64,000 nt of DNA from Escherichia phage MIZ4. Each line of letters begins with the position of its first letter. The stretch's first letter is position 1. Location of the stretch: sequence record OR167180; one strand, 5' to 3'. The notes beneath the pieces were generated by a model that saw only the letters and a list, made by a program, of their open reading frames with translations, searched no databases and had not been told where the DNA came from. Shown one piece after another: positions 28,381 to 38,076 of the stretch. The translations under genes and the position numbers were made by a program.

Positions 28381-30432
28381 TTACATTTTAAATTTATCTG
28401 GCATTGCGTCTACAGATACCAGATCAGCGATAAGCTGACGTAGAGTTGCCTTATCTGCTTTCTTACGTTCGGTTTTAGCTTCGCTAATGAAGCTGGAGAA
28501 AGACAGGTCAGAAGCAGGTTTAACAACACCCTCACGGATGAATGCATCACCGTCCGCGATCATTTCGCCAGATTCTTGTAATGCTGCCAGTTCATTTTTG
28601 TTCATAATATGTGCCTCAATGTAATAAGTTTCTTGTGAATCTGTCGATGCCGTAGCACGAGTTACCGTATCAAAGGATAACACAACACCGCGAGGAAGTA
28701 AAATCTCGCATTCTTTGTAAGCAAATGCTTTGTTACCTACTGGCAAGACAGGGATGTTTTCCGCGCCAGCAATGGAGAAAGCAACATTAGCGCCACCTTC
28801 ACCGCGAGAGCCAGCCATAGAATCAACACCAGCAACGGCACTAGCCACGTTTGCATTCCAGCCGCCAAAAATGTTAGGTGCAAGGGAAGTGCTCACATAG
28901 TTTTTAAAGTAAAACGCTTTTTGCTTACGTGCAGTTTCCCACATTTGCGACCGGAAGTCCATACCACGATACAGAATAGTACCCGGATCAAGTTTAACGC
29001 CATAGTTGGAGAAGGCATTATCCAGTGCATCGCACATCTTGACCAATTCTTCTGGATCTGAGATTCCTTCAAACTCTTCCAGCTTACGGTCGGTTAGGAA
29101 GTTGTTCATATTGATGTATGCTGCATCGGCATATTCGCTCAACACAAAACCTTCCGCGCCTGGCAGATCAAGATCAATATCTGCCATCATTTCACCCATG
29201 TTGCTAGCAATTGCTTCAAACATACCGGACGCAACATTACGAAGGGCATCGGTTTTAATCTGGGTGATATGACTACGCAGCATTTCAGCTTTTACATCTG
29301 CTGGCATAGACTGGTCTACTCGATCCATTGCCAGGGCGGTGATCTTGTTTTCGAATACTTCCTCGCTCATGATTTCTTTTAAGCGTTTGATTGATGCTGC
29401 GATAACTTCCGCAGACAACGGATCATATTGATCCTGAACTTTTACCAGTTCGCTTACTGCGTATTTTGCATCTGCTTCGCTTTCAAAAATAGTACGCATG
29501 AAACCATAGCGAGTGATAATATCACTTGTCCAGTCATTCAGAGAACGGGCGGTTGAACGTTCTAAGGCTTGACGGTCAATCAGAGTATTAAACTGTTTCT
29601 TAGGTTCGGCTTCGGTGATATCTTCTTCCGGTTTAAGATTAATTTTTTCTGGATGATTCACGTAGTCGCTGTTATAGGTCGCTTGAGTTTTCAGCATTTC
29701 TTCTTTAGTCAAACGAGATTTAGCCGCTACGCGTTGTTCTGCTTCCGCGTTTCGTTCTTCTTCTGACACAAGACTAGCCGCATATGCCTCATCTTTAGTC
29801 AGAGATTCACCCGTAGCCTTAGATACCCAGCGATCACCTAAATCACTTTCTACTTTGGTGAACAAGGATTCATCAAGTTTAATCCCTTTAATCTTATCAA
29901 TCGCCATCCCGCGACGTTTGACAACAACTAAAGCGATCTTTTTGCTGGTCATTACTTCCTGCTGGAATACTTCAAACTTCGGTGTACGACGCACCAAACG
30001 CTCTATAACGCGCTTAACCAGTTCGGTCTTACCTTTCATGCGGGATACGTTAAAACGGAACATAACAGCGTCTAATTGCGCTTTACGGGCTGTTTCCATA
30101 ACCACATCAAACGCACTTGCCATAACTGCAATCGGGTTATCGCCTAGACCATTTTTAAGTTGTACAATACGACCGCTTTTGTTCATTTCGCACAGTACAA
30201 CATGTGCGGTTTTGTCACCCATACGAATGATTTTAGGTGTTTTGTTGGTGAAGTTACAAAGACGGACAATCACATCTTTATCGCGTGTCTGTACTGCAAA
30301 AAGCTGTTTAGGATTCTGCTTAGGCTTTAAGCACTGTACCGGAGCAATACTGCCAAAGTTTTCTTCCTCTTCCGTCAACAGCCATTTCTCGAAAGATTCA
30401 ATCATTAGATCGTCGATTTCTAAGTTAAACAT
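28381..30432 (-). CDS. alt: Alt ADP-ribosyltransferase (683 aa)
   Basis: Size and position as T4 Alt (682 aa); motifs ILYRG, YVSTS, ECEILLPRG. Confidence 0.9.
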   Translation of the reverse strand: MFNLEIDDLMIESFEKWLLTEEEENFGSIAPVQCLKPKQNPKQLFAVQTRDKDVIVRLCNFTNKTPKIIRMGDKTAHVVLCEMNKSGRIVQLKNGLGDNPIAVMASAFDVVMETARKAQLDAVMFRFNVSRMKGKTELVKRVIERLVRRTPKFEVFQQEVMTSKKIALVVVKRRGMAIDKIKGIKLDESLFTKVESDLGDRWVSKATGESLTKDEAYAASLVSEEERNAEAEQRVAAKSRLTKEEMLKTQATYNSDYVNHPEKINLKPEEDITEAEPKKQFNTLIDRQALERSTARSLNDWTSDIITRYGFMRTIFESEADAKYAVSELVKVQDQYDPLSAEVIAASIKRLKEIMSEEVFENKITALAMDRVDQSMPADVKAEMLRSHITQIKTDALRNVASGMFEAIASNMGEMMADIDLDLPGAEGFVLSEYADAAYINMNNFLTDRKLEEFEGISDPEELVKMCDALDNAFSNYGVKLDPGTILYRGMDFRSQMWETARKQKAFYFKNYVSTSLAPNIFGGWNANVASAVAGVDSMAGSRGEGGANVAFSIAGAENIPVLPVGNKAFAYKECEILLPRGVVLSFDTVTRATASTDSQETYYIEAHIMNKNELAALQESGEMIADGDAFIREGVVKPASDLSFSSFISEAKTERKKADKATLRQLIADLVSVDAMPDKFKM

Positions 30433-30791: not shown

Positions 30792-31073
30792 TTATTCGTG
30801 ATTAGTTTCGATGTTGTGCATTTTGCACCAGTTCAGCCAATCGCCCAGATCCTGATAGTTAATGCTTTTATCTGCTGCCATCGTTTTTGTCTTGATACCC
30901 ATATGTGCGTTATGAGTAAGCATTTTTACAGTGAACTCGATTTTATCGCCTTTAGCTTTAACATCAACCAGTTTGGTCCACTGGCTACCAGCGCCGCGAA
31001 TGTTCATACCAACGATGTTTCCGATGTACGCTTCTTTGTTTTTCAGGATTTCGGTTGCTTTGATGAATTTCAT
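30792..31073 (-). CDS. Hypothetical small protein (93 aa)
   Basis: ATG preceded by the conserved leader GGAGAATCAAAA. Confidence 0.65.
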   Translation of the reverse strand: MKFIKATEILKNKEAYIGNIVGMNIRGAGSQWTKLVDVKAKGDKIEFTVKMLTHNAHMGIKTKTMAADKSINYQDLGDWLNWCKMHNIETNHE

Positions 31074-31106
31074 TTTTGATTCTCCAGTTCGTTTCGGTAT
31101 GTGTGT

Positions 31107-31135
31107 ATTATGCTATGTTCTTACTTTGGTGTCAA
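31107..31135 (-). promoter_or_regulatory. Sigma70-type early promoter cassette
   Basis: Minus strand TTGACA-17-CATAAT followed by the conserved ACACACATACCGAAACGA leader. Confidence 0.6.
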
Positions 31136-31143
31136 CAACTTTT

Positions 31144-31413
31144 TTAGATATTTTCAGAAATAAATTTTAAAACTTGACGTAAATGTTTCTCATCTTTGAT
31201 AGTCGCCGGAAGTTCTTCTTTTACTTCCTGTGCAAGATAGATATTTCCGTTCCAAGTGAAAGATCCGTCTTCGTTTACGCGATAGCTGAACATCCACTCG
31301 CAATCATTTTCGATTTCATATACACACAGAATGGTGTAATCTTCAAAGCTATTGATTTCAAGGTCGAAGCCGTGACGTTTTGCAAAGTTGGTAGTGGTTT
31401 TAGTCAGTGCCAT
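31144..31413 (-). CDS. Hypothetical small protein (89 aa)
   Basis: ATG start with RBS; own upstream promoter cassette. Confidence 0.65.
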   Translation of the reverse strand: MALTKTTTNFAKRHGFDLEINSFEDYTILCVYEIENDCEWMFSYRVNEDGSFTWNGNIYLAQEVKEELPATIKDEKHLRQVLKFISENI

Positions 31414-31453
31414 TGTTTGATTCTCCTAAGTGGTATCTCGTTTCGATGGGTGT

Positions 31454-31482
31454 ATTATGCTATACACAGGATCTGGTGTCAA
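31454..31482 (-). promoter_or_regulatory. Sigma70-type early promoter cassette
   Basis: TTGACA-17-CATAAT, conserved leader. Confidence 0.6.
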
Positions 31483-31534
31483 CAACTTTTTTAAAAAATA
31501 GGCAATAAAAAGCCGACACTATGGTCGGCACATT

Positions 31535-31789
31535 TTAAAAATTCTTGCTATATATGCAAGCCTCATAATCTAGAGGATGACCGCCAATCCTACCAGGCTT
31601 AATATTCCAACCGCATCGATATTTGCTGACCATGCTAACCGTTTCGGTTCTTAGAGCATTTCTTTGCAAATCATACCCCCTAAATTCTTGTCTATAAGGA
31701 CAGTCCGCTTTGCAAGTTGGCGGTTCTACGTCATTTAGCGGGTCAGAAGCAGTTGGCTTTATTATCAATTCTTTGTTTGCAATAATCAT
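31535..31789 (-). CDS. Hypothetical Cys-rich small protein (about 84 aa)
   Basis: Start uncertain (ATG at 31789 or 31819); overlaps the upstream gene in a different frame. Confidence 0.4.
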   Translation of the reverse strand: MIIANKELIIKPTASDPLNDVEPPTCKADCPYRQEFRGYDLQRNALRTETVSMVSKYRCGWNIKPGRIGGHPLDYEACIYSKNF

Positions 31790-31922
31790 AAGCACATCCC
31801 ATTGAAGGCAATTTAACATCTTCGCAATAAGTGTTGAATCCGTCAAATACAATCACTTCGTATTTGACTCCATCGGCGATAGCTTTTACTTTATACCATC
31901 CATGCTTGTATAAAATCTTCAT
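31743..31922 (-). CDS. Hypothetical Cys-rich small protein (59 aa)
   Basis: Start at MKILYK with GAGGGAAATAAAG RBS. Confidence 0.55.
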   Translation of the reverse strand: MKILYKHGWYKVKAIADGVKYEVIVFDGFNTYCEDVKLPSMGCAYDYCKQRIDNKANCF

Positions 31923-31955
31923 CTTTATTTCCCTCAATCTCGTTTCGATGGGTGT

Positions 31956-31984
31956 ATTATGCTATAGGCGTGATCTGGTGTCAA
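31956..31984 (-). promoter_or_regulatory. Sigma70-type early promoter cassette
   Basis: TTGACA-17-CATAAT, conserved leader. Confidence 0.6.
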
Positions 31985-32042
31985 TGCCTTTTTTTAAAAT
32001 TTTATGCAATAAAAAAGCCGACACTAAGGTCGGCTAATAAAA

Positions 32043-32351
32043 TCATTTAGACAAATAATCATTCTGTGCAATCCGGTCGGCGTATGCTGGTGTTATGTCA
32101 ATCGCCAGCACTTTAACGCGTGCTTTCTTGCGACCTGGGTTTTCTCGTAACCAGTGCTCATGACCGTGAACATTTTTATACTTTGATGCTGTTTCGAAAG
32201 TACGGATCGGACCTGGGTAATCAGCGTAAAGGATCTCTAGATCTTCGGTGATGTAAAAATATACATCGTAATTGCTGTTCTCTAGCTTAAGCAGAGACTT
32301 TCGGAACATTGGGAGATTTTCGCGGGTAAATTCAAAGATATTATCTTTCAT
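32043..32351 (-). CDS. HxHW-family small protein, member 1 (102 aa)
   Basis: Shares YFYITEDLEILYADY ... HGHEHW ... KVLAIDI with five paralogs. Confidence 0.7.
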   Translation of the reverse strand: MKDNIFEFTRENLPMFRKSLLKLENSNYDVYFYITEDLEILYADYPGPIRTFETASKYKNVHGHEHWLRENPGRKKARVKVLAIDITPAYADRIAQNDYLSK

Positions 32352-32380
32352 AGTATTATCCTCAATAGTTGGATGAAAAG

Positions 32381-32397
32381 GGGCGTTAACGCCCCCA
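32381..32397 (-). terminator. Hairpin (possible leaky terminator)
   Basis: GGGGCGTTAACGCCCC followed on the minus strand by TTTTC. Confidence 0.4.
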
Positions 32398-32401
32398 TAT
32401 A

Positions 32402-32689
32402 TTAAAACAGTCCTTCCTGTACACCGTAGTAGAGTTCGTCGCTGATAATTTCATTAATGCGACGGTGTGTATATTCCTGATTTGCGAAGTTGTCAGCAAG
32501 TTCTACTTTAGTTTCGCCGTCATGAGTCCATTTAGTGATAACTTTACCATCTGCAAATTTGAAGTTGAACTCTTTAGCTACTGCATCGCGTACCAGACGT
32601 GCAAACTTATTGTTGCGGATTGCATTGTCGGTTTCGTGTGCAGCGTGAGCAAATTTGTTAACTTTCAGAGTGATAGTGATGTATGCCAT
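32402..32689 (-). CDS. KEFN-family small protein, member A (95 aa)
   Basis: Paralog of 35712..36023 (LVRDAVAKEFNFK vs IREVRKALAKEFNTK). Confidence 0.65.
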   Translation of the reverse strand: MAYITITLKVNKFAHAAHETDNAIRNNKFARLVRDAVAKEFNFKFADGKVITKWTHDGETKVELADNFANQEYTHRRINEIISDELYYGVQEGLF

Positions 32690-32734
32690 AATTTGATTCT
32701 CCTAGTTAGAAAGTGTATCTCGTTTCGATGGGTG

Positions 32735-32763
32735 TATTATGCTATACACCCGATCCGTTGTCA
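32735..32763 (-). promoter_or_regulatory. Sigma70-type early promoter cassette
   Basis: TTGACA-17-CATAAT, conserved leader ACACCCATCGAAACGAGATACAC. Confidence 0.6.
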
Positions 32764-32770
32764 ACACTTT

Positions 32771-33049
32771 TTATAAAATAATTTTTTGATATTTTTCTAT
32801 GATGTTTGTGTAGGTCACATCAACCGCTAGCACCGTTGCTTCGAATCCACCGTTTAGCCAATGGCTATGATCATGATCGTGAAAGAAACCTAGACCAGTA
32901 CGAAGACCTTCTTTATATTCGGCGCGTACATTCAGTTTGTCGTCGATAAACAGATAAAACCATGAATTTTTACTAGGATTGATGATACAACCTTTCAGAT
33001 TAGGGAGAATATCACGACTAAGAATAAACTTATCACCTACTTTGAACAT
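32771..33049 (-). CDS. HxHW-family small protein, member 2 (92 aa)
   Basis: WFYLFIDDKLNV ... HDHDHSHW ... TVLAVDV; start at ATG 33049. Confidence 0.7.
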   Translation of the reverse strand: MFKVGDKFILSRDILPNLKGCIINPSKNSWFYLFIDDKLNVRAEYKEGLRTGLGFFHDHDHSHWLNGGFEATVLAVDVTYTNIIEKYQKIIL

Positions 33050-33053
33050 AATA

Positions 33054-33374
33054 TTAGTCCTCACTTATAAGGTCAAACCAATTGTTTTTAGCATAATGCT
33101 TAATGCGTGCTTGATCTGCTTCCGCTGGTGATAGATTCCATGCAACCACTACAACTTCTGACGCATCGTCATCAGTTTCTGATACCCAATGATTGTGATT
33201 CATACAGTTATTTGCTATCGAGTGAGCAAATGATTTCATCACTGGAGACGTATAATCATAGTAACGGATTTTCAGATTTTCATCAACATACAAGTAGATC
33301 GTATACGGCTTATATTCAGTAACCAGTAACAGACAGTTACGCAATTCTGGGAAAATCTTTTTAGTTAATTTCAT
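33054..33374 (-). CDS. HxHW-family small protein, member 3 (106 aa)
   Basis: YTIYLYVDENLKIRYYDY ... NHNHW ... VVVVAW; GGAGAA RBS. Confidence 0.65.
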   Translation of the reverse strand: MKLTKKIFPELRNCLLLVTEYKPYTIYLYVDENLKIRYYDYTSPVMKSFAHSIANNCMNHNHWVSETDDDASEVVVVAWNLSPAEADQARIKHYAKNNWFDLISED

Positions 33375-33576
33375 ATTCTAGTTCTCCGTAATACACGGTA
33401 ATCCATTTTTCTTCATACTTTGTATCTTTCCAACACACAATCCCGTTTACTGTGCAATCTTTGGAATTGACGAATGATTCATATTGTTCCGCATCTTCCA
33501 TCATTTCATGAGCGGTCTTTTCATCGAATATATCGCAGATCGCTTTATATGCTCGATAATCTTTAAATTTGCTCAT
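33361..33576 (-). CDS. MSKFKDY-family small protein, copy 2 (71 aa)
   Basis: Tandem paralog of 33579..33788 (MSKFKDYRAYKAI vs MSKFKDYKAYQQI). Confidence 0.6.
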   Translation of the reverse strand: MSKFKDYRAYKAICDIFDEKTAHEMMEDAEQYESFVNSKDCTVNGIVCWKDTKYEEKWITVYYGELEYEIN

Positions 33577-33578
33577 AA

Positions 33579-33788
33579 TTAACACCACTCAAGAGTTTTT
33601 GAAAACACATCTATCCATTGTTGAGTATATGCGGTTTCTTTCCATGATACAATACCAGTCGAATAATGGTTTTTGTTTCCAGAAAAGGACGGGCATTTTG
33701 ATGCATCTTCCATCATCTTTTCGGCGAACTCTGGTTCGTATACTCGCAAGATCTGTTGATATGCTTTGTAGTCTTTAAATTTGCTCAT
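33579..33788 (-). CDS. MSKFKDY-family small protein, copy 1 (69 aa)
   Basis: Tandem paralog of 33361..33576. Confidence 0.6.
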   Translation of the reverse strand: MSKFKDYKAYQQILRVYEPEFAEKMMEDASKCPSFSGNKNHYSTGIVSWKETAYTQQWIDVFSKTLEWC

Positions 33789-34053
33789 AATCGTTAACTA
33801 CCTTATCAGCTTCTTTTATTGTTTTTACATCAACTGCGATAATACGTAAAGGTTCGTCGAATGTCCACCAATGATCGTGAATATCAGCTTGTGATTTATC
33901 ACCAAAGGAATCACGAATATCATTTTTACATTTATAGCTAATGTGACCGTTATAGTCAACATAAAGGTAATTATCGAAAATCGGCGTTTTTAAGATCATA
34001 CCGAAAAATCTTTCTTTGTGTGTCTTATCCAGCGTTGCAGTAATTCGCATCAT
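33775..34053 (-). CDS. HxHW-family small protein, member 4 (92 aa)
   Basis: YLYVDYNGHISY ... IHDHWW ... RIIAVDV; AAGAGGA RBS. Confidence 0.7.
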   Translation of the reverse strand: MMRITATLDKTHKERFFGMILKTPIFDNYLYVDYNGHISYKCKNDIRDSFGDKSQADIHDHWWTFDEPLRIIAVDVKTIKEADKVVNDYEQI

Positions 34054-34065
34054 AATATATTCCTC

Positions 34066-34245
34066 TTAGAAAGGGATGGTCATTTCTTGAGCTTGTACAT
34101 TCTCGTTAGGATTAAACTTCATCCAACCGATATTGTCTACCAGCATATGCACATTTTTATCATATCCTACGTGAGTAGTCAACACTAAATGTGCTTTGCC
34201 TTCAACGATGATTTCCATGTACTTCTGAACTTCGATAGATTTCAT
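34066..34245 (-). CDS. Hypothetical small protein (59 aa)
   Basis: ATG preceded by the GGAGAATCAAAA leader; translated by eye (MKSIEVQKYMEIIVEGKAHL...). Confidence 0.5.
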   Translation of the reverse strand: MKSIEVQKYMEIIVEGKAHLVLTTHVGYDKNVHMLVDNIGWMKFNPNENVQAQEMTIPF

Positions 34246-34277
34246 TTTGATTCTCCGTTTGTTGTCTTGGTGGGAGT

Positions 34278-34306
34278 ATCTTACTACTCCCTTTAATCAT
34301 TGTCAA
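34278..34306 (-). promoter_or_regulatory. Early promoter cassette with hairpin over the -10
   Basis: TTGACA-17-TAAGAT; hairpin GGGAGTA-GTAAGA-TACTCCC encloses the -10 hexamer. Confidence 0.55.
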
Positions 34307-34309
34307 CGA

Positions 34310-34477
34310 TTATTTGTTAATTTCTGGTGCGTTGCTAGGATAGTAACCTTCTTTAACACCCAGATATTTTGCAACCATTCCGGTGATCTTCTGTGCTACT
34401 ACGATATCGAATTTCAGGTAGTCTTCACCGTGGTTTGCTACAATGTATGCTTCGCATTCTGCTTTAGTCTGGAACAT
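34310..34477 (-). CDS. Hypothetical small protein (55 aa)
   Basis: Start at MFQTKAECEAYIV; the track N-terminus MLTGDHRSPILHTY is the translated promoter. Confidence 0.55.
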   Translation of the reverse strand: MFQTKAECEAYIVANHGEDYLKFDIVVAQKITGMVAKYLGVKEGYYPSNAPEINK

Positions 34478-34511
34478 TTTTGATTCTCCTATATCTCGTT
34501 GGTATGTGTGT

Positions 34512-34540
34512 AGTATAGGGGATCGGTGATCCCCTGTCAA
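34512..34540 (-). promoter_or_regulatory. Sigma70-type early promoter cassette
   Basis: TTGACA-GGGGATCACCGATCCCC-TATACT. Confidence 0.6.
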
Positions 34541-34548
34541 CAACTTTT

Positions 34549-34857
34549 TTATTCTTCATCTTCATTTTTATCTTTATATGCGTACTTCATAAATTTGTCT
34601 GCTACTTTGTCCGCGTTTTCAGGTTCTACGTCTGACGCTAGGACAACAGCTAGTTCGGTTTTGTCGTTTCCATCATACCAATGATTATGAGTGTCGTTTT
34701 CTTCGATATAAAACGAATCATTTGGAGTTGTGCGACAATATACGTCTAAATTCCCATCGATATAAAAGATCCAATCCGAATACAAAATGATTGCTTTAGC
34801 CAGATTTTTATTGTCTCTTACAAAAGGTTCCGCGACAAATAGCTTAGTTTGTTCCAT
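34549..34857 (-). CDS. HxHW-family small protein, member 5 (102 aa)
   Basis: WIFYIDGNLDVY ... THNHW ... LAVVLASDV; GAGGA RBS. Confidence 0.7.
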   Translation of the reverse strand: MEQTKLFVAEPFVRDNKNLAKAIILYSDWIFYIDGNLDVYCRTTPNDSFYIEENDTHNHWYDGNDKTELAVVLASDVEPENADKVADKFMKYAYKDKNEDEE

Positions 34858-34873
34858 AATATTTTCCTCAAAA

Positions 34874-35065
34874 TTATACAGCTTCGTAAACTTCCCAATG
34901 TTCAGCGCCAACACGCTTAACGAAAAGGTTTTCTTTGATGTTATTCATAAACGCCTGGATGGATTTAATGCGGTTGGAAGGTTTCCAGTCTTCGTTGGCA
35001 TTGCGGCGATACATAATAACATTACCAGTTCGCTTATATTCAGCAACCATTTTAAGACCACACAT
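34874..35065 (-). CDS. Hypothetical small protein (63 aa)
   Basis: ATG with GAGGATAA RBS. Confidence 0.5.
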   Translation of the reverse strand: MCGLKMVAEYKRTGNVIMYRRNANEDWKPSNRIKSIQAFMNNIKENLFVKRVGAEHWEVYEAV

Positions 35066-35122
35066 AATATTATCCTCAATTTGTGGGAGAGTATTACCCC
35101 TCCCAATGAATGTTATGTTATA

Positions 35123-35443
35123 TCACACAAAATGGCGTGTCAATGCTTCTTTTGCGGTTCCGCTAAGACTTTCGATCTCGCCTGGCATAACATCAACCGC
35201 CAGAACTTCTACAACATCCTCGGACCCTAACCAGTGAGTATGACCTTTGTAGAACTTGATAACCAGACTACCTTCCTCGTCCCATTTAACGCTATCGCTA
35301 GCCCACCACACATCACCGTCGATAAAGTTGATGTAAAGCACACTACGCCACATTGAATTAATTACTTTCAATACTGCGCCTTTCATCTCTTCCACGGTAT
35401 GGTCTTCCATTTTGAAGACCTCACCTACCCGAACTTTTGCCAT
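35123..35443 (-). CDS. HxHW-family small protein, member 6 (106 aa)
   Basis: VLYINFIDGDVWW ... GHTHW ... VLAVDV; GAGAGGTGA RBS. Confidence 0.7.
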   Translation of the reverse strand: MAKVRVGEVFKMEDHTVEEMKGAVLKVINSMWRSVLYINFIDGDVWWASDSVKWDEEGSLVIKFYKGHTHWLGSEDVVEVLAVDVMPGEIESLSGTAKEALTRHFV

Positions 35444-35460
35444 TTAGTCACCTCTCTTTA

Positions 35461-35640
35461 TTACATAACAATCACGCCAGCCGTTGAAAGTTGATGTTTC
35501 AACTGAGCATTTTCTGCTACCGTCAAATCAATGATTTCTTGTGACGCTGCAATCATATATCCATTGGTGATATTGTTTTGCATCAGTTCAATGGTTTCTT
35601 CGTTGTAGCGGATTTTAGCGATGATTTCGTTGAAGTTCAT
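35461..35640 (-). CDS. Hypothetical small protein (59 aa)
   Basis: Start at MNFNEIIAK; track N-terminus is the translated promoter. Confidence 0.55.
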   Translation of the reverse strand: MNFNEIIAKIRYNEETIELMQNNITNGYMIAASQEIIDLTVAENAQLKHQLSTAGVIVM

Positions 35641-35674
35641 GATTGATTCTCCTAGTTCGTTTCGGTATGTGTGT

Positions 35675-35703
35675 AGTATAGGGGATCGGTGATCCCCTGT
35701 CAA
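35675..35703 (-). promoter_or_regulatory. Sigma70-type early promoter cassette
   Basis: Identical to the cassette at 34512 (TTGACA-GGGGATCACCGATCCCC-TATACT). Confidence 0.6.
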
Positions 35704-35711
35704 CAACTTTT

Positions 35712-36023
35712 TTAAAGTTTTTCCATGATAACGGTCATAATTACATCTTCTGCGCGAGCGGTCAGATTATCAGCGTCAGGATGTGGGCGGTTGGTTGTTA
35801 CAGAGATAACACCGTTGCGCACTGGTTTGATATTGATATCAAGATGATCCGCGAAACGTTCGCCATTTACAGAATGAATTTTGGTGTTAAATTCTTTTGC
35901 CAGTGCCTTGCGAACTTCACGAATCAGGGTAGCGTTTTTCAGTTGGTTCTCCGCGCTCATGGTCTTCTGGGTGTTCATGGTTCCGTCGAAGTCAATCATT
36001 GGCAGCGTTACGATGTATTTCAT
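35712..36023 (-). CDS. KEFN-family small protein, member B (103 aa)
   Basis: Paralog of 32402..32689; conserved GGAGAATCAAAA leader. Confidence 0.65.
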   Translation of the reverse strand: MKYIVTLPMIDFDGTMNTQKTMSAENQLKNATLIREVRKALAKEFNTKIHSVNGERFADHLDINIKPVRNGVISVTTNRPHPDADNLTARAEDVIMTVIMEKL

Positions 36024-36068
36024 TTTTGATTCTCCGTTTAAGAAAGTGTGTTTCGTTTTGATGTGTGT

Positions 36069-36098
36069 ATTATAAGGGGATCACCGATCCCCTGTCAA
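36069..36098 (-). promoter_or_regulatory. Sigma70-type early promoter cassette
   Basis: TTGACA-GGGGATCGGTGATCCCC-T-TATAAT (18-nt spacer). Confidence 0.6.
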
Positions 36099-36110
36099 CA
36101 ACTTTTTGGA

Positions 36111-36587
36111 TTATTTTTCTTGATGCTCGCGCTCATACTTTTCGAAATAAAATTCTACTGGCTGATCGTGGATTGAAAGCAAGCCAAAGCGTTTAGCCGC
36201 TCGCAATCCCATATTGCGCTGAATGTACTTCTGGAAGTTCTCTCGTATACACTTACGCCAGTATTCTAAGCCCATACAGCTTTTATAAAGATTGCATTGT
36301 ACACACGCCGGATTCATGTTATCAAGTATATCATGTTCCGGTTTATGCATTCCTACAACCTTATACTTCCACGATCCATCATCATTACGGGCAATTCGTC
36401 CATTTTCATCATAGACTACCTTTGAGCGTCGCAATACTGGTTTGATGTGGTCTGCGTGCCAGCGATCCCCTAGTTCCTCGCCACAATAGGCACAACGTCC
36501 ACCGTATTTCATTTTCAGGATCTGGCGTTGCTCTTTCTTTGACAATTTTTTAGGTTTAGGGGCTTTCGCCCCTTCATTATCACACAT
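36111..36587 (-). CDS. HNH endonuclease (158 aa)
   Basis: CAYCG ... WHADHIKP ... NMNPACVQCN; overlaps the 3' end of the ligase gene by 8 nt. Confidence 0.75.
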   Translation of the reverse strand: MCDNEGAKAPKPKKLSKKEQRQILKMKYGGRCAYCGEELGDRWHADHIKPVLRRSKVVYDENGRIARNDDGSWKYKVVGMHKPEHDILDNMNPACVQCNLYKSCMGLEYWRKCIRENFQKYIQRNMGLRAAKRFGLLSIHDQPVEFYFEKYEREHQEK

Positions 36588-38076
36588 CGAATACCTCTTT
36601 TACTGTATTTGCTGTGGTCTTGTCGTAGCGAATACGTTTGATGATTGGGAGAAATAAAGAGAACTCCGGTTCATCTTCTTTACGTGATTTGCTGCGAATG
36701 TACCCGTTGCATGTCATCTCAATGACTTTTCCAATCAGGTTATGACGGTCAGCCCATAACATTTCTCGGTCGAGTTCATTTCGACGATCGAACGGAATTA
36801 CACGTTCGATACCATCATCACCTTTTTCGGTTGTGGTGTCGGTTAATCCCGATCCGGTATTAGTCATCATTCGTCCGCACGCACTACGGACAGTAAAACC
36901 GCCTACCTTATTAGGATCTTTACTATGCGGATATACATCAACAATTTCCGCGTCGAAGTCAATAACTTCTTTAAATTTAACCTGATCTTTACTACGGCGA
37001 TCTTCAAATACACCATGTAAATTTTTAAGGATAATACCTTCTAAGCCCATGTTGACATAACGATGATATACTTCGCGAGCTTCATCGATATTGTTAACTA
37101 CGGTATTTTCGATTATCTGAACACGAGGATCGTTAAGTTCTTCAACAATCTGTTTTAGTTCTTCGAATCGATCTTTATATTGCTTCGTTGCTTTCTCGTT
37201 TCCGTAATACACATCACGGTCGATAACATCCCAGACAGTGTAAACAATACATTGGGCTTCTTCTTTTGGAATAGTTCCTTTCAGTGATTTGTTGAGGATA
37301 CCATTTCCGGTCTGACGATCTGCAACAACGGATTCTTTCACCGCTTCCGCTACTGGCGTTAATGGCATTTCCTCTTCTTCAAATATCCATGACAGAGTAC
37401 CATCATAAACGCTCTCAACGAAGTTCTGCGCTGGTGTTTGCGAAAGGGTAGGCATATATACCAATTCGCCATCTAGAACAATTCCACGGCCTCGTAGACG
37501 CTCTAAAACCGCAAACAAATCATCAAGCCCTTGATAGGTATTACCTGAACGGGTATAGATTGATAATGTTTCCCCGTCAATATCAGCCATACCACGAGCG
37601 CCATCGCTTTTAAGTTGTGCATACGCCGGATACTTGATATTAGCAATAGTCTTATCAGAACATGACGATGCCAGGTGGCACGGTTGCTGGGGGATCAGTT
37701 TCTTCCATACCTTGTTTGCAGTGGTAGCGGAACAACCGCATTCCAGGTCACGATTCAGGACCATCATTGCAACTTTAGCATCATCCTCTGACAAGCAAGT
37801 CAGAGTATCGGTAACTAGCTGTAATGCTGCGTTGCCAGTTACTTGACGCGTGGCAAGTTTATTTTTAAAGACCTGTAATGCACCGGATAAAGACAATACA
37901 GACGAATAACGCGATGGTTTATCGTATTTCTTTACGCCAAACGTAACCTGTTTGCAATATGCCAGATAAAAGCATTCTTTCAGCGTTTCATTGCTCGCGG
38001 ATTCTTTCAGAATCTTTTCTTTCAGCGATGTTTTGTCTGTTGCTGCAAGCTGATTAATGATATTAAGAATTGACAT
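36580..38076 (-). CDS. 30: ATP-dependent DNA ligase (gp30)
   Basis: Matches T4 DNA ligase (active-site KSDGAR in YAQLKSDGARG, LDGELVY, GLEGIILK, RDLECG); start moved to ATG 38076. Confidence 0.93.
   Translation of the reverse strand: MSILNIINQLAATDKTSLKEKILKESASNETLKECFYLAYCKQVTFGVKKYDKPSRYSSVLSLSGALQVFKNKLATRQVTGNAALQLVTDTLTCLSEDDAKVAMMVLNRDLECGCSATTANKVWKKLIPQQPCHLASSCSDKTIANIKYPAYAQLKSDGARGMADIDGETLSIYTRSGNTYQGLDDLFAVLERLRGRGIVLDGELVYMPTLSQTPAQNFVESVYDGTLSWIFEEEEMPLTPVAEAVKESVVADRQTGNGILNKSLKGTIPKEEAQCIVYTVWDVIDRDVYYGNEKATKQYKDRFEELKQIVEELNDPRVQIIENTVVNNIDEAREVYHRYVNMGLEGIILKNLHGVFEDRRSKDQVKFKEVIDFDAEIVDVYPHSKDPNKVGGFTVRSACGRMMTNTGSGLTDTTTEKGDDGIERVIPFDRRNELDREMLWADRHNLIGKVIEMTCNGYIRSKSRKEDEPEFSLFLPIIKRIRYDKTTANTVKEVFDV

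Follow-up and report, generated by a model that had tools for sequence, protein, structure and literature searches.

The stretch of DNA considered here, the window, comprises 64,000 nucleotides of Escherichia phage MIZ4 (record OR167180), a Krischvirus of the RB49/Phi1 group (Straboviridae, T4-like coliphage), and between positions 32043 and 35443 it carries six small genes whose products share an H-x-H-W motif followed by a hydrophobic strand. An earlier note on this DNA, made from the letters alone, had picked out six open reading frames (ORFs) in this interval, and all six lie where it had placed them, on the minus strand. We label the members HW1 to HW6, numbered from 32043..32351 (HW1) to 35123..35443 (HW6). 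They are given below with length in amino acids (aa), Phi1 counterpart, motif, last strand and cluster in PHROGs, and in two cases with the predicted local distance difference test score (pLDDT) and predicted template modelling score (pTM) of an AlphaFold2 (AF2) model.

35123..35443, minus strand: HW6, 106 aa, orthologue of Phi1 ORF208; GHTHW, VLAVDV; a PHROG of its own, 16486; AF2 pLDDT 84.0, pTM 0.79
34549..34857, minus strand: HW5, 102 aa, Phi1 ORF206; THNHW, VLASDV; PHROG 15965
33775..34053, minus strand: HW4, 92 aa, Phi1 ORF203; IHDHW, IIAVDV; PHROG 15972
33054..33374, minus strand: HW3, 106 aa, Phi1 ORF200; NHNHW, VVAWNL (Asn for Asp); PHROG 9345
32771..33049, minus strand: HW2, 92 aa, Phi1 ORF199; HDHDHSHW, VLAVDV; PHROG 17255
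32043..32351, minus strand: HW1, 102 aa, Phi1 ORF197; GHEHW, VLAIDI; PHROG 9345; AF2 pLDDT 84.4, pTM 0.79

All six are annotated as "hypothetical protein" in every record examined, including that of phage MIZ5 (OR167181.1), which is 99.9% identical to the window over bases 31000-37000 and shares its coordinates there; some 57 further Krischvirus records are 93-97% identical over the same bases.

Sequence family, motif and predicted fold

It is close to certain that these ORFs are real protein-coding paralogues belonging to one lineage-restricted family, with members in Krischvirus and in a handful of uncultured sister phages. A Shine-Dalgarno sequence (GAGG/GGAG) stands 6-9 nucleotides (nt) upstream of the ATG in all six genes. 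Pairwise identity is low, as the earlier note had remarked, at 23-32% over the full-length alignment, and pairwise BLASTP among the six returns E-values from 1e-13 to 0.04. The proposed kinship is borne out by leave-one-out searches of the 586 stop-to-stop ORFs of the window, in which a profile of any five members picks out the sixth at E = 1.1e-6 to 3.7e-13, with the best non-member at E = 0.084-0.43; because each member is recovered by a profile built without it, the homology call is not circular. The motif is also conserved in position, with H-x-H-W occupying one column block across the alignment, where M1, H64, H66, W67 and A83 are invariant. Among six-frame ORFs of at least 40 aa in 163.5 kb of the 165.5 kb genome, H.HW occurs six times, every time in one of the six, where composition alone would give 1.3; no seventh member comes up with a broader profile in the same 163.5 kb, nor within the window. 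Isoelectric points (pI) across members run from 4.2 to 9.1, HW5 being the most acidic (pI 4.4).

Once 25-32 diverse homologues are compared, which are otherwise 15-30% identical, the signature narrows. The H-x-H-W core is in register in the six, but only its second His and the Trp are invariant across this wider set. The first His (H64) and the Tyr of the aromatic strand (Y33) are conserved in at least 90% of the sequences; the former is Ser in P0083 and P0085, is replaced in P0088, and in some natural orthologues gives way to S, D or N. P0083, P0085 and P0088 are full-length orthologues, some of them from 169 kb phage contigs. The hydrophobic strand, which the earlier note had written as (V/I)LA(V/I)DV, is present but looser (VVAWNL in 33054..33374, VLASDV in 34549..34857), and its Asp is Asn throughout the HW3 subfamily and Gly in others. 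The aromatic strand (YLYID) is likewise real, but in the predicted fold it comes third among the strands (residues ~29-34), not at the N-terminus to which it had been assigned.

The AF2 models of HW1 and HW6 (mean pLDDT 84, pTM 0.79) have their elements in the same order: a short strand, a short helix, three strands, a variable loop, the H-x-H-W turn, a fifth strand (VLAxDV) and a C-terminal helix predicted to start at P-x-E-A-D. In both models the motif sits in the turn preceding the last strand; in that of HW6 the block around it reaches pLDDT 86-95, and low confidence falls in the variable loop before it. BFVD models of other paralogues superpose on the HW1 model with TM-scores of 0.6-0.8. 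Each of the six genes encodes a soluble domain of ~90-105 aa with a common predicted fold, one that, as modelled, has no detectable solved relative.

The earlier note could not match the proteins to a named family, and we arrive at the same result: Pfam and NCBIfam are without a match, PADLOC (anti-phage defence profiles) gives 0 families at E <= 0.1, and PHROGs offers only clusters of unknown function, each protein matching its own at E 1e-48 to 1e-72. A HMMER search of 1.84 billion representative proteins returned 22 matches, none of them a T4 protein; the genuine ones are phage proteins of 68-128 aa (Krischvirus-like) and one 203-aa tandem fusion. Two long matches were set aside as spurious: P0099 and P0100 are RCC1-repeat and Ig-repeat proteins, and their scores accumulate over weak repeats. 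In a word-indexed search of 5.8 billion proteins, 85 clusters were found, and all those inspected are orthologues of the six, many on phage contigs of 163-176 kb. A profile of the six sequences touched Protein Data Bank (PDB) entry 1yb3 (E 0.058) and a hydrogenase small subunit with HTHW (E 0.26); we take both to be chance matches, lost with a 25-sequence profile, which has no PDB match at E <= 10.

Several Pfam candidates were tried and rejected, namely PROCT, Cupin_2, TTL and T4_Y03C, each sub-threshold and confined to one member. The best, PROCT (JAB/MPN-type), has E 0.0017 with HW2 (32771..33049), the only one of 25 members to match it, and its 18.7 bits fall short of the cut-off of 23.6. 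The match to T4_Y03C lacks colinearity, pairing the C-terminal half of P0090 with the profile's N-terminal half. Cupins carry two cupin motifs on a beta-barrel; Cupin_2 reaches E 0.19 and 11.9 bits (cut-off 27.2), and no cupin appears in the fold searches. Histidine triad (HIT) proteins are defined by H-phi-H-phi-H-phi-phi, where phi is hydrophobic; H-x-H-x-H-x-H occurs only in HW2, with D, D and S at x, and there is neither a HIT match in Pfam nor a HIT structure among the fold matches. Nor did the fold searches return a significant match to a metal-binding fold.

Position, retention and age of the family

The six-gene region lies between the genes for Alt and DNA ligase:

28381..30432: Alt ADP-ribosyltransferase gene, one flank of the region
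36111..36587, minus strand: HNH endonuclease gene (158 aa), on the other flank and bordering the hyperplastic region; shares 8 nt with the 3' end of the ligase gene
36580..38076: DNA ligase gene (gp30), on that same flank

Of the ~19 genes that separate ligase from alt, six belong to the family. T4 has just one gene in its alt-30 interval, alt.1 (62 aa), and because alt.1 stands there alone, the 5.6 kb of alt-to-ligase material is a lineage-specific insertion; T4 118-134 kb gives no match to the family profile, and a T4 housekeeping counterpart is thereby missing from that interval. The alt-ligase stretch matches the hyperplastic region described in Phi1/RB49 (Arbiol et al. 2010, PMC2839356).

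Retention and selection were assessed in 11 Krischvirus genomes (10 besides the window phage). All six members are present in 11/11, and of their neighbours 30500.., 31535.. and 31743.. occur in only some of these genomes, and 34874.. and 35712.. are absent from one. Ratios of non-synonymous to synonymous divergence (dN/dS, Nei-Gojobori) are 0.08-0.25 per orthologue group, and the six genes are under purifying selection. Three of them also diverge deeply between genomes: HW1, HW4 and HW5 have a mean dS of 0.26-0.65 and a maximum of 0.66-3.1, against 0.02-0.11 for most neighbours, and their amino-acid identity falls to 56-69%. HW5 exists as deep alleles of 68-79% amino-acid identity in 8 of the 10 other genomes, and HW4 as a 56-57% identity allele in GEC-3S and Phi1. 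The two phrog_8471 genes that lie between HW4 and HW3 behave similarly (mean dS 0.94 for 33361..33576 and 0.27 for 33579..33788), and a 62%-identity allele of 33361..33576 is found in 6/11 genomes. All these variants are old alleles swapped by recombination, and not products of accelerated protein evolution. The "rapid divergence" of the earlier note therefore needs recasting: the variability is there, as deep allelic replacement with high dS, but the dN/dS values are those of purifying selection.

The same note had proposed an ancient duplication, and here the uncultured relatives agree with it, as diverged homologues each fall in one paralogue subfamily, from HW2 to HW6. Each is much closer to one paralogue than to the rest, as with P0090 and HW3 (58%), P0087 and HW6 (52%), P0094 and HW4 (37%), and P0089 and HW5 (44%). 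A 20.4 kb contig of an uncultured T4-like phage (L018, ENA ERZ27235406), closest to Krischvirus genomes at ~72% nucleotide identity over ~30% of the queried ligase-to-alt stretch, keeps the ligase ... alt synteny with ~12 small ORFans between, two of them HW5-type. Because relatives' homologues sort by paralogue subfamily, and HW5-type genes stand between ligase and alt in L018, the duplications predate the wider lineage. The same contig has a second ADP-ribosyltransferase gene past alt.

Gene content between alt and the family varies among Krischvirus genomes. Two small ORFs at 31535..31922 are present in 6/11 genomes; GEC-3S (L001 1557-3612) and MIZ6 (L008 358-2413) have an additional block of ~2 kb that includes a DNA methyltransferase; and RB49, whose record is unannotated, is longer at the same site. 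At the opposite end, genome G2248 has an extra 345-nt ORF beside the HNH endonuclease gene. Outside the window, MIZ5 93461-97253 (L004 29461-33253) has its DNA polymerase annotated as two coding sequences with an HNH endonuclease gene between them, an arrangement that would amount to a split gp43 carrying a homing-type endonuclease as an insert.

Transcription units, coupled reading frames and natural fusions

Eight near-consensus sigma-70 promoters, with 11-12 of 12 matches, lie on the minus strand within repeated cassettes of 50-77 nt (36098-36069, 35703-35675, 34540-34512, 32764-32736, 31984-31956, 31482-31454, 31135-31107 and 30777-30749). These cassettes are the PeSL elements of Phi1/RB49, and in several of them the spacer that parts the -35 and -10 boxes contains a GGGGATC..GATCCCC stem-loop. 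In the raw ORF list, the 'MLTGDHRSPILHTY' extensions at N-termini are spurious, arising where PeSL cassettes are read in another frame. The elements that bear on the six genes are the following:

35675..35703, minus strand: PeSL-type sigma-70 promoter, TTGACA-17-TATACT with GGGGATC..GATCCCC in the spacer; its operon runs 35461..35640, HW6, 34874..35065, HW5
34512..34540, minus strand: PeSL promoter directly downstream of HW5, orthologue of Phi1/RB49 PeSL206/205
Operon behind the 34540 promoter, minus strand: 34310..34477, 34066..34245, HW4, the two phrog_8471 genes, HW3, HW2
33579..33788 (69 aa) and 33361..33576 (71 aa), minus strand: phrog_8471 pair between HW4 and HW3, stop and start codons overlapping or abutting
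32736..32764, minus strand: PeSL promoter heading 32402..32689 (phrog_7474), then HW1 by read-through of a hairpin
32380..32395, minus strand: GC-rich hairpin GGGGCGTTAACGCCCC with TTTT between 32402..32689 and HW1, a terminator or attenuator; annotated as a terminator in GEC-3S
32016..32035, minus strand: terminator-like hairpin AGCCGACC..GGTCGGCT with a T-run directly after HW1; terminator annotated in GEC-3S

From this layout, early expression of the six genes from PeSL promoters, in three operons, may be inferred. The earlier note had placed the genes under early promoters; what stands of this is operons behind three sigma-70-type PeSL promoters, but there is not one promoter per gene, and HW1, flanked on both sides by terminator-like hairpins, comes after one of them. 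In Phi1/RB49, a lacZ fusion of PeSL206/205 gave ~13,000 Miller units, and the PeSL211/210 stem-loop terminates as strongly as rrnB T1 (PMC2839356). Two further genes on the minus strand, 32402-32689 (95 aa) and 35712-36023 (103 aa), form a paralogue pair in phrog_7474, which has no annotated function; each comes first after a PeSL promoter, and HW2 to HW6 lie between them.

Within the operon from HW4 to HW2 the genes are tightly packed. The stop of HW4 and the start of 33579..33788 overlap by 14 nt, as do the end of 33361..33576 and the start of HW3; the other junctions there are of 2-4 nt, and HW2 starts 4 nt past the stop of HW3. Reading frames that overlap or are spaced by 2-4 nt are the usual sign of translational coupling. 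The intervening phrog_8471 genes are 72% identical in DNA over 89 nt, and their PHROG entry reads "unknown function".

Two natural fusions, both from short metagenomic contigs of one study, join these same domains. A 203-aa ORF (L003 823-1434; Logan SRR8048117, a 2123 bp contig) combines an HW2-like and an HW5-like domain with tandem H-x-H-W motifs, in a diverged cluster that also has HW6-, HW4- and HW3-type genes in an order unlike that of MIZ5. A 260-aa ORF (L016 318-1100; Logan SRR8048112, a 1189 bp contig) has two phrog_8471 domains and then an HW3-like domain, colinear with the MIZ5 order 33579..33788, 33361..33576, HW3. Rosetta-stone reasoning from these fusions, combined with the coupling of the frames, makes joint action probable, both among the HW proteins and between them and the phrog_8471 proteins.

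Candidate roles and comparison with known systems

What might such a family do? Our best guess is a binding role exercised early, directed at the host or at its defences. In the composite reading that we prefer, and to which we give somewhat less than an even chance, the HW proteins are early-made small binding modules that act in complexes on host components, with a shared His-Trp pocket and paralogue-specific surfaces; the descriptive part of this is near certain and the functional part a guess. The six proteins would be made immediately after infection from the PeSL sigma-70 early promoters and would bind host components, in takeover or counter-defence, rather than serve core replication or morphogenesis. 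A shared binding or catalytic pocket could be built from the invariant His-Trp together with the first His, itself near-invariant, and the Tyr of strand 3, and the rest of the surface, which differs between paralogues (hence the spread of pI), may give each a separate specificity; retention of all six would then be explained, because each paralogue has a specificity of its own. They probably work as oligomers or in complexes, associating among themselves and with the co-translated phrog_8471 products. A shared chemistry fits better than target binding by itself, because mere target-binding inhibitors would be unlikely to keep His-Trp invariant at 15-30% identity. The anti-defence or host-takeover role that the earlier note had proposed is plausible from genomic context.

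Several considerations weigh against this composite reading. The conserved His-Trp could be purely structural, for instance a core Trp and a helix-capping His; in the searches of family libraries and of the literature, neither an experiment nor a homology came up that would connect a member with a host target, with a defence system or with a ligand; each fusion is a single short metagenomic contig and could be an artefact of assembly, frameshift or sequencing; and the early timing is read from promoter sequence and one reporter assay in a relative. We also posit a more specific version, which we consider rather unlikely, whereby the six and the phrog_8471 pair constitute a counter-defence or host-takeover family with a new fold, a His-Trp-Tyr pocket whose ligand is a metal, a phosphorylated target or a signal derived from nucleotides, and six specificities displayed on homo- or hetero-oligomers. 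If this were true, one phage locus would hold an array of inhibitors or sponges against several host immune pathways.

The conserved His residues lend themselves to other chemistries. The earlier note had read metal or nucleotide binding into the His-x-His-Trp core, a proposal weakened by natural replacement of the first His and of the Asp and by the absence of a matching metal-binding fold. A metal-binding mini-domain or small metalloenzyme might chelate Zn, Ni or Fe through H-x-H and the Asp of the last strand, in the manner of JAMM/MPN, cupin or metallo-beta-lactamase-like proteins, and the family would then consist of metal-dependent hydrolases or metal-dependent oligomers. H-x-H is indeed found in at least 90% of sequences with an Asp or Asn ~19 residues on, and PROCT and Cupin_2 give their sub-threshold matches. 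However, those matches come from 1/25 members each, the first His is lost in the three orthologues named above, the Asp is replaced in the entire HW3 subfamily and elsewhere, a third or fourth invariant ligand is absent, and structural matches, metal-binding folds included, are not significant; we regard both this reading and what it implies as having a small chance. Smaller again is the chance we allow to nucleotide-signal sponges, early oligomers that would sequester cyclic oligonucleotides, glycocyclic ADP-ribose (gcADPR) or histidine-ADP-ribose (His-ADPR) as Tad1, Tad2 and Acb2 do, with His, Trp and Tyr stacking on bases and binding phosphates, and paralogues differing in the signal bound. 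The length of ~90-105 aa, the inferred early expression, the invariant aromatic/His cluster on a variable scaffold and the retention of several paralogues would all suit such proteins, but the structural scores are at noise level and equalled by dozens of unrelated folds, and sequence similarity to the sponge families is absent from Pfam, where DUF2829 (Tad2) has no match at E <= 1 in the 25 members.

In Cys-His-Asp/Asn triads the His is oriented by Asp or Asn, and the spacing of ~19 residues between His and Asp/Asn in the family, along with its D/N alternation, resembles such pairs. The domain could on this account be a degenerate, dead papain- or transglutaminase-like fold, or else a protease or deamidase with an unconventional nucleophile, its His oriented by the Asp/Asn of the next strand. 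There is no conserved Cys, Ser or Thr nucleophile, though, with C, S, M, A or T at the candidate position and no Cys at all in two of the six members, and a papain-like core is roughly twice as large as this domain, which makes the reading a long shot. Finally, the genes might be near-neutral or functionless ORFan cargo, duplicated by PeSL-mediated shuffling and keeping the motif by common descent only. PeSL repeats and other paralogue pairs abound in the region, neighbouring genes are gained and lost between genomes, and PeSL-mediated shuffling of ORFans is documented in Phi1/RB49 (PMC2839356). Yet neutral cargo is disfavoured, and very improbable in our estimate, being contradicted by the retention of all six in 11/11 genomes and by the low dN/dS, held at dS up to 0.6-3; subfamily orthologues also persist in relatives at only ~72% nucleotide identity, and His-Trp stays invariant despite the divergence of everything around it.

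Regardless of which chemistry applies, the family is well defined and testable, albeit narrowly distributed. Krischvirus phages (RB49, Phi1, GEC-3S and many isolates characterised for prospective phage therapy) are widely isolated, and their early ORFan regions are functionally blank; an anonymous stretch of one such region becomes a defined target, with six paralogues, one point-mutable motif, natural deep alleles and fusions that suggest partners. Were the proteins to act on host immunity or in takeover, as the composite reading has it, the anti-defence repertoire of T4-like phages would gain a new family and perhaps a new fold. Should they have no such role, they would be a clean example of long-term paralogue retention within a region known for rapid gene shuffling.

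Among known enzymes, JAMM/MPN proteins (PROCT, JAB) share with the family an H-x-H followed by an acidic residue and the one sub-threshold match. The JAMM metal site reads E...H-x-H-x7-S-x2-D, whereas the family has neither a conserved upstream Glu nor a Ser-x-x-Asp, can dispense with the first His, places its Asp at +14 to +21 with N or G in many sequences, and has a domain ~30% shorter; JAMM/MPN was rejected, with the Pfam score below the gathering threshold, the metal site incomplete and no MPN fold. Tad1, Tad2 and Acb2 are small phage anti-defence proteins, and the aromatic/His-rich conserved site of the family recalls them, together with structural echoes at noise level; the two sides differ in that neither sequence nor significant structural similarity links the family to Tad2 (DUF2829), Tad1 or Acb2. 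Papain-like effectors and C39 peptidases (Cif, RavD and viral deubiquitinases) are also among the closest known systems that we considered.

Small early accessory protein families in T4-like hyperplastic regions are a familiar kind of thing; as a protein family, this one is without a known relative. PHROGs already holds the six proteins, in clusters 9345, 17255, 15972, 15965 and 16486, all labelled "unknown function". The family is there split into five clusters joined by weak cross-links only (E 2e-6 to 9e-3), HW4 matching its own cluster alone, and neither its unity nor the invariant His-Trp nor the common fold is recorded. Searches of the literature on RB49/Krischvirus anti-defence and on 'HxHW' found nothing relevant to these genes, and a text search of PMC2839356 found no mention of paralogues, nor of ORF197, 199, 203, 206 or 208. 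The unity of the six paralogues, the His-Trp signature, the shared fold (as predicted), the universal retention and the fusions are new relative to the literature searched. The closest precedent remains the PeSL-flanked ORFans of RB49/Phi1 (PMC2839356), from the same region and with the same promoter/stem-loop cassettes: there, the region was seen as orphan ORFs shuffled by cassettes, whereas here six of its genes emerge as one old and stably retained family.

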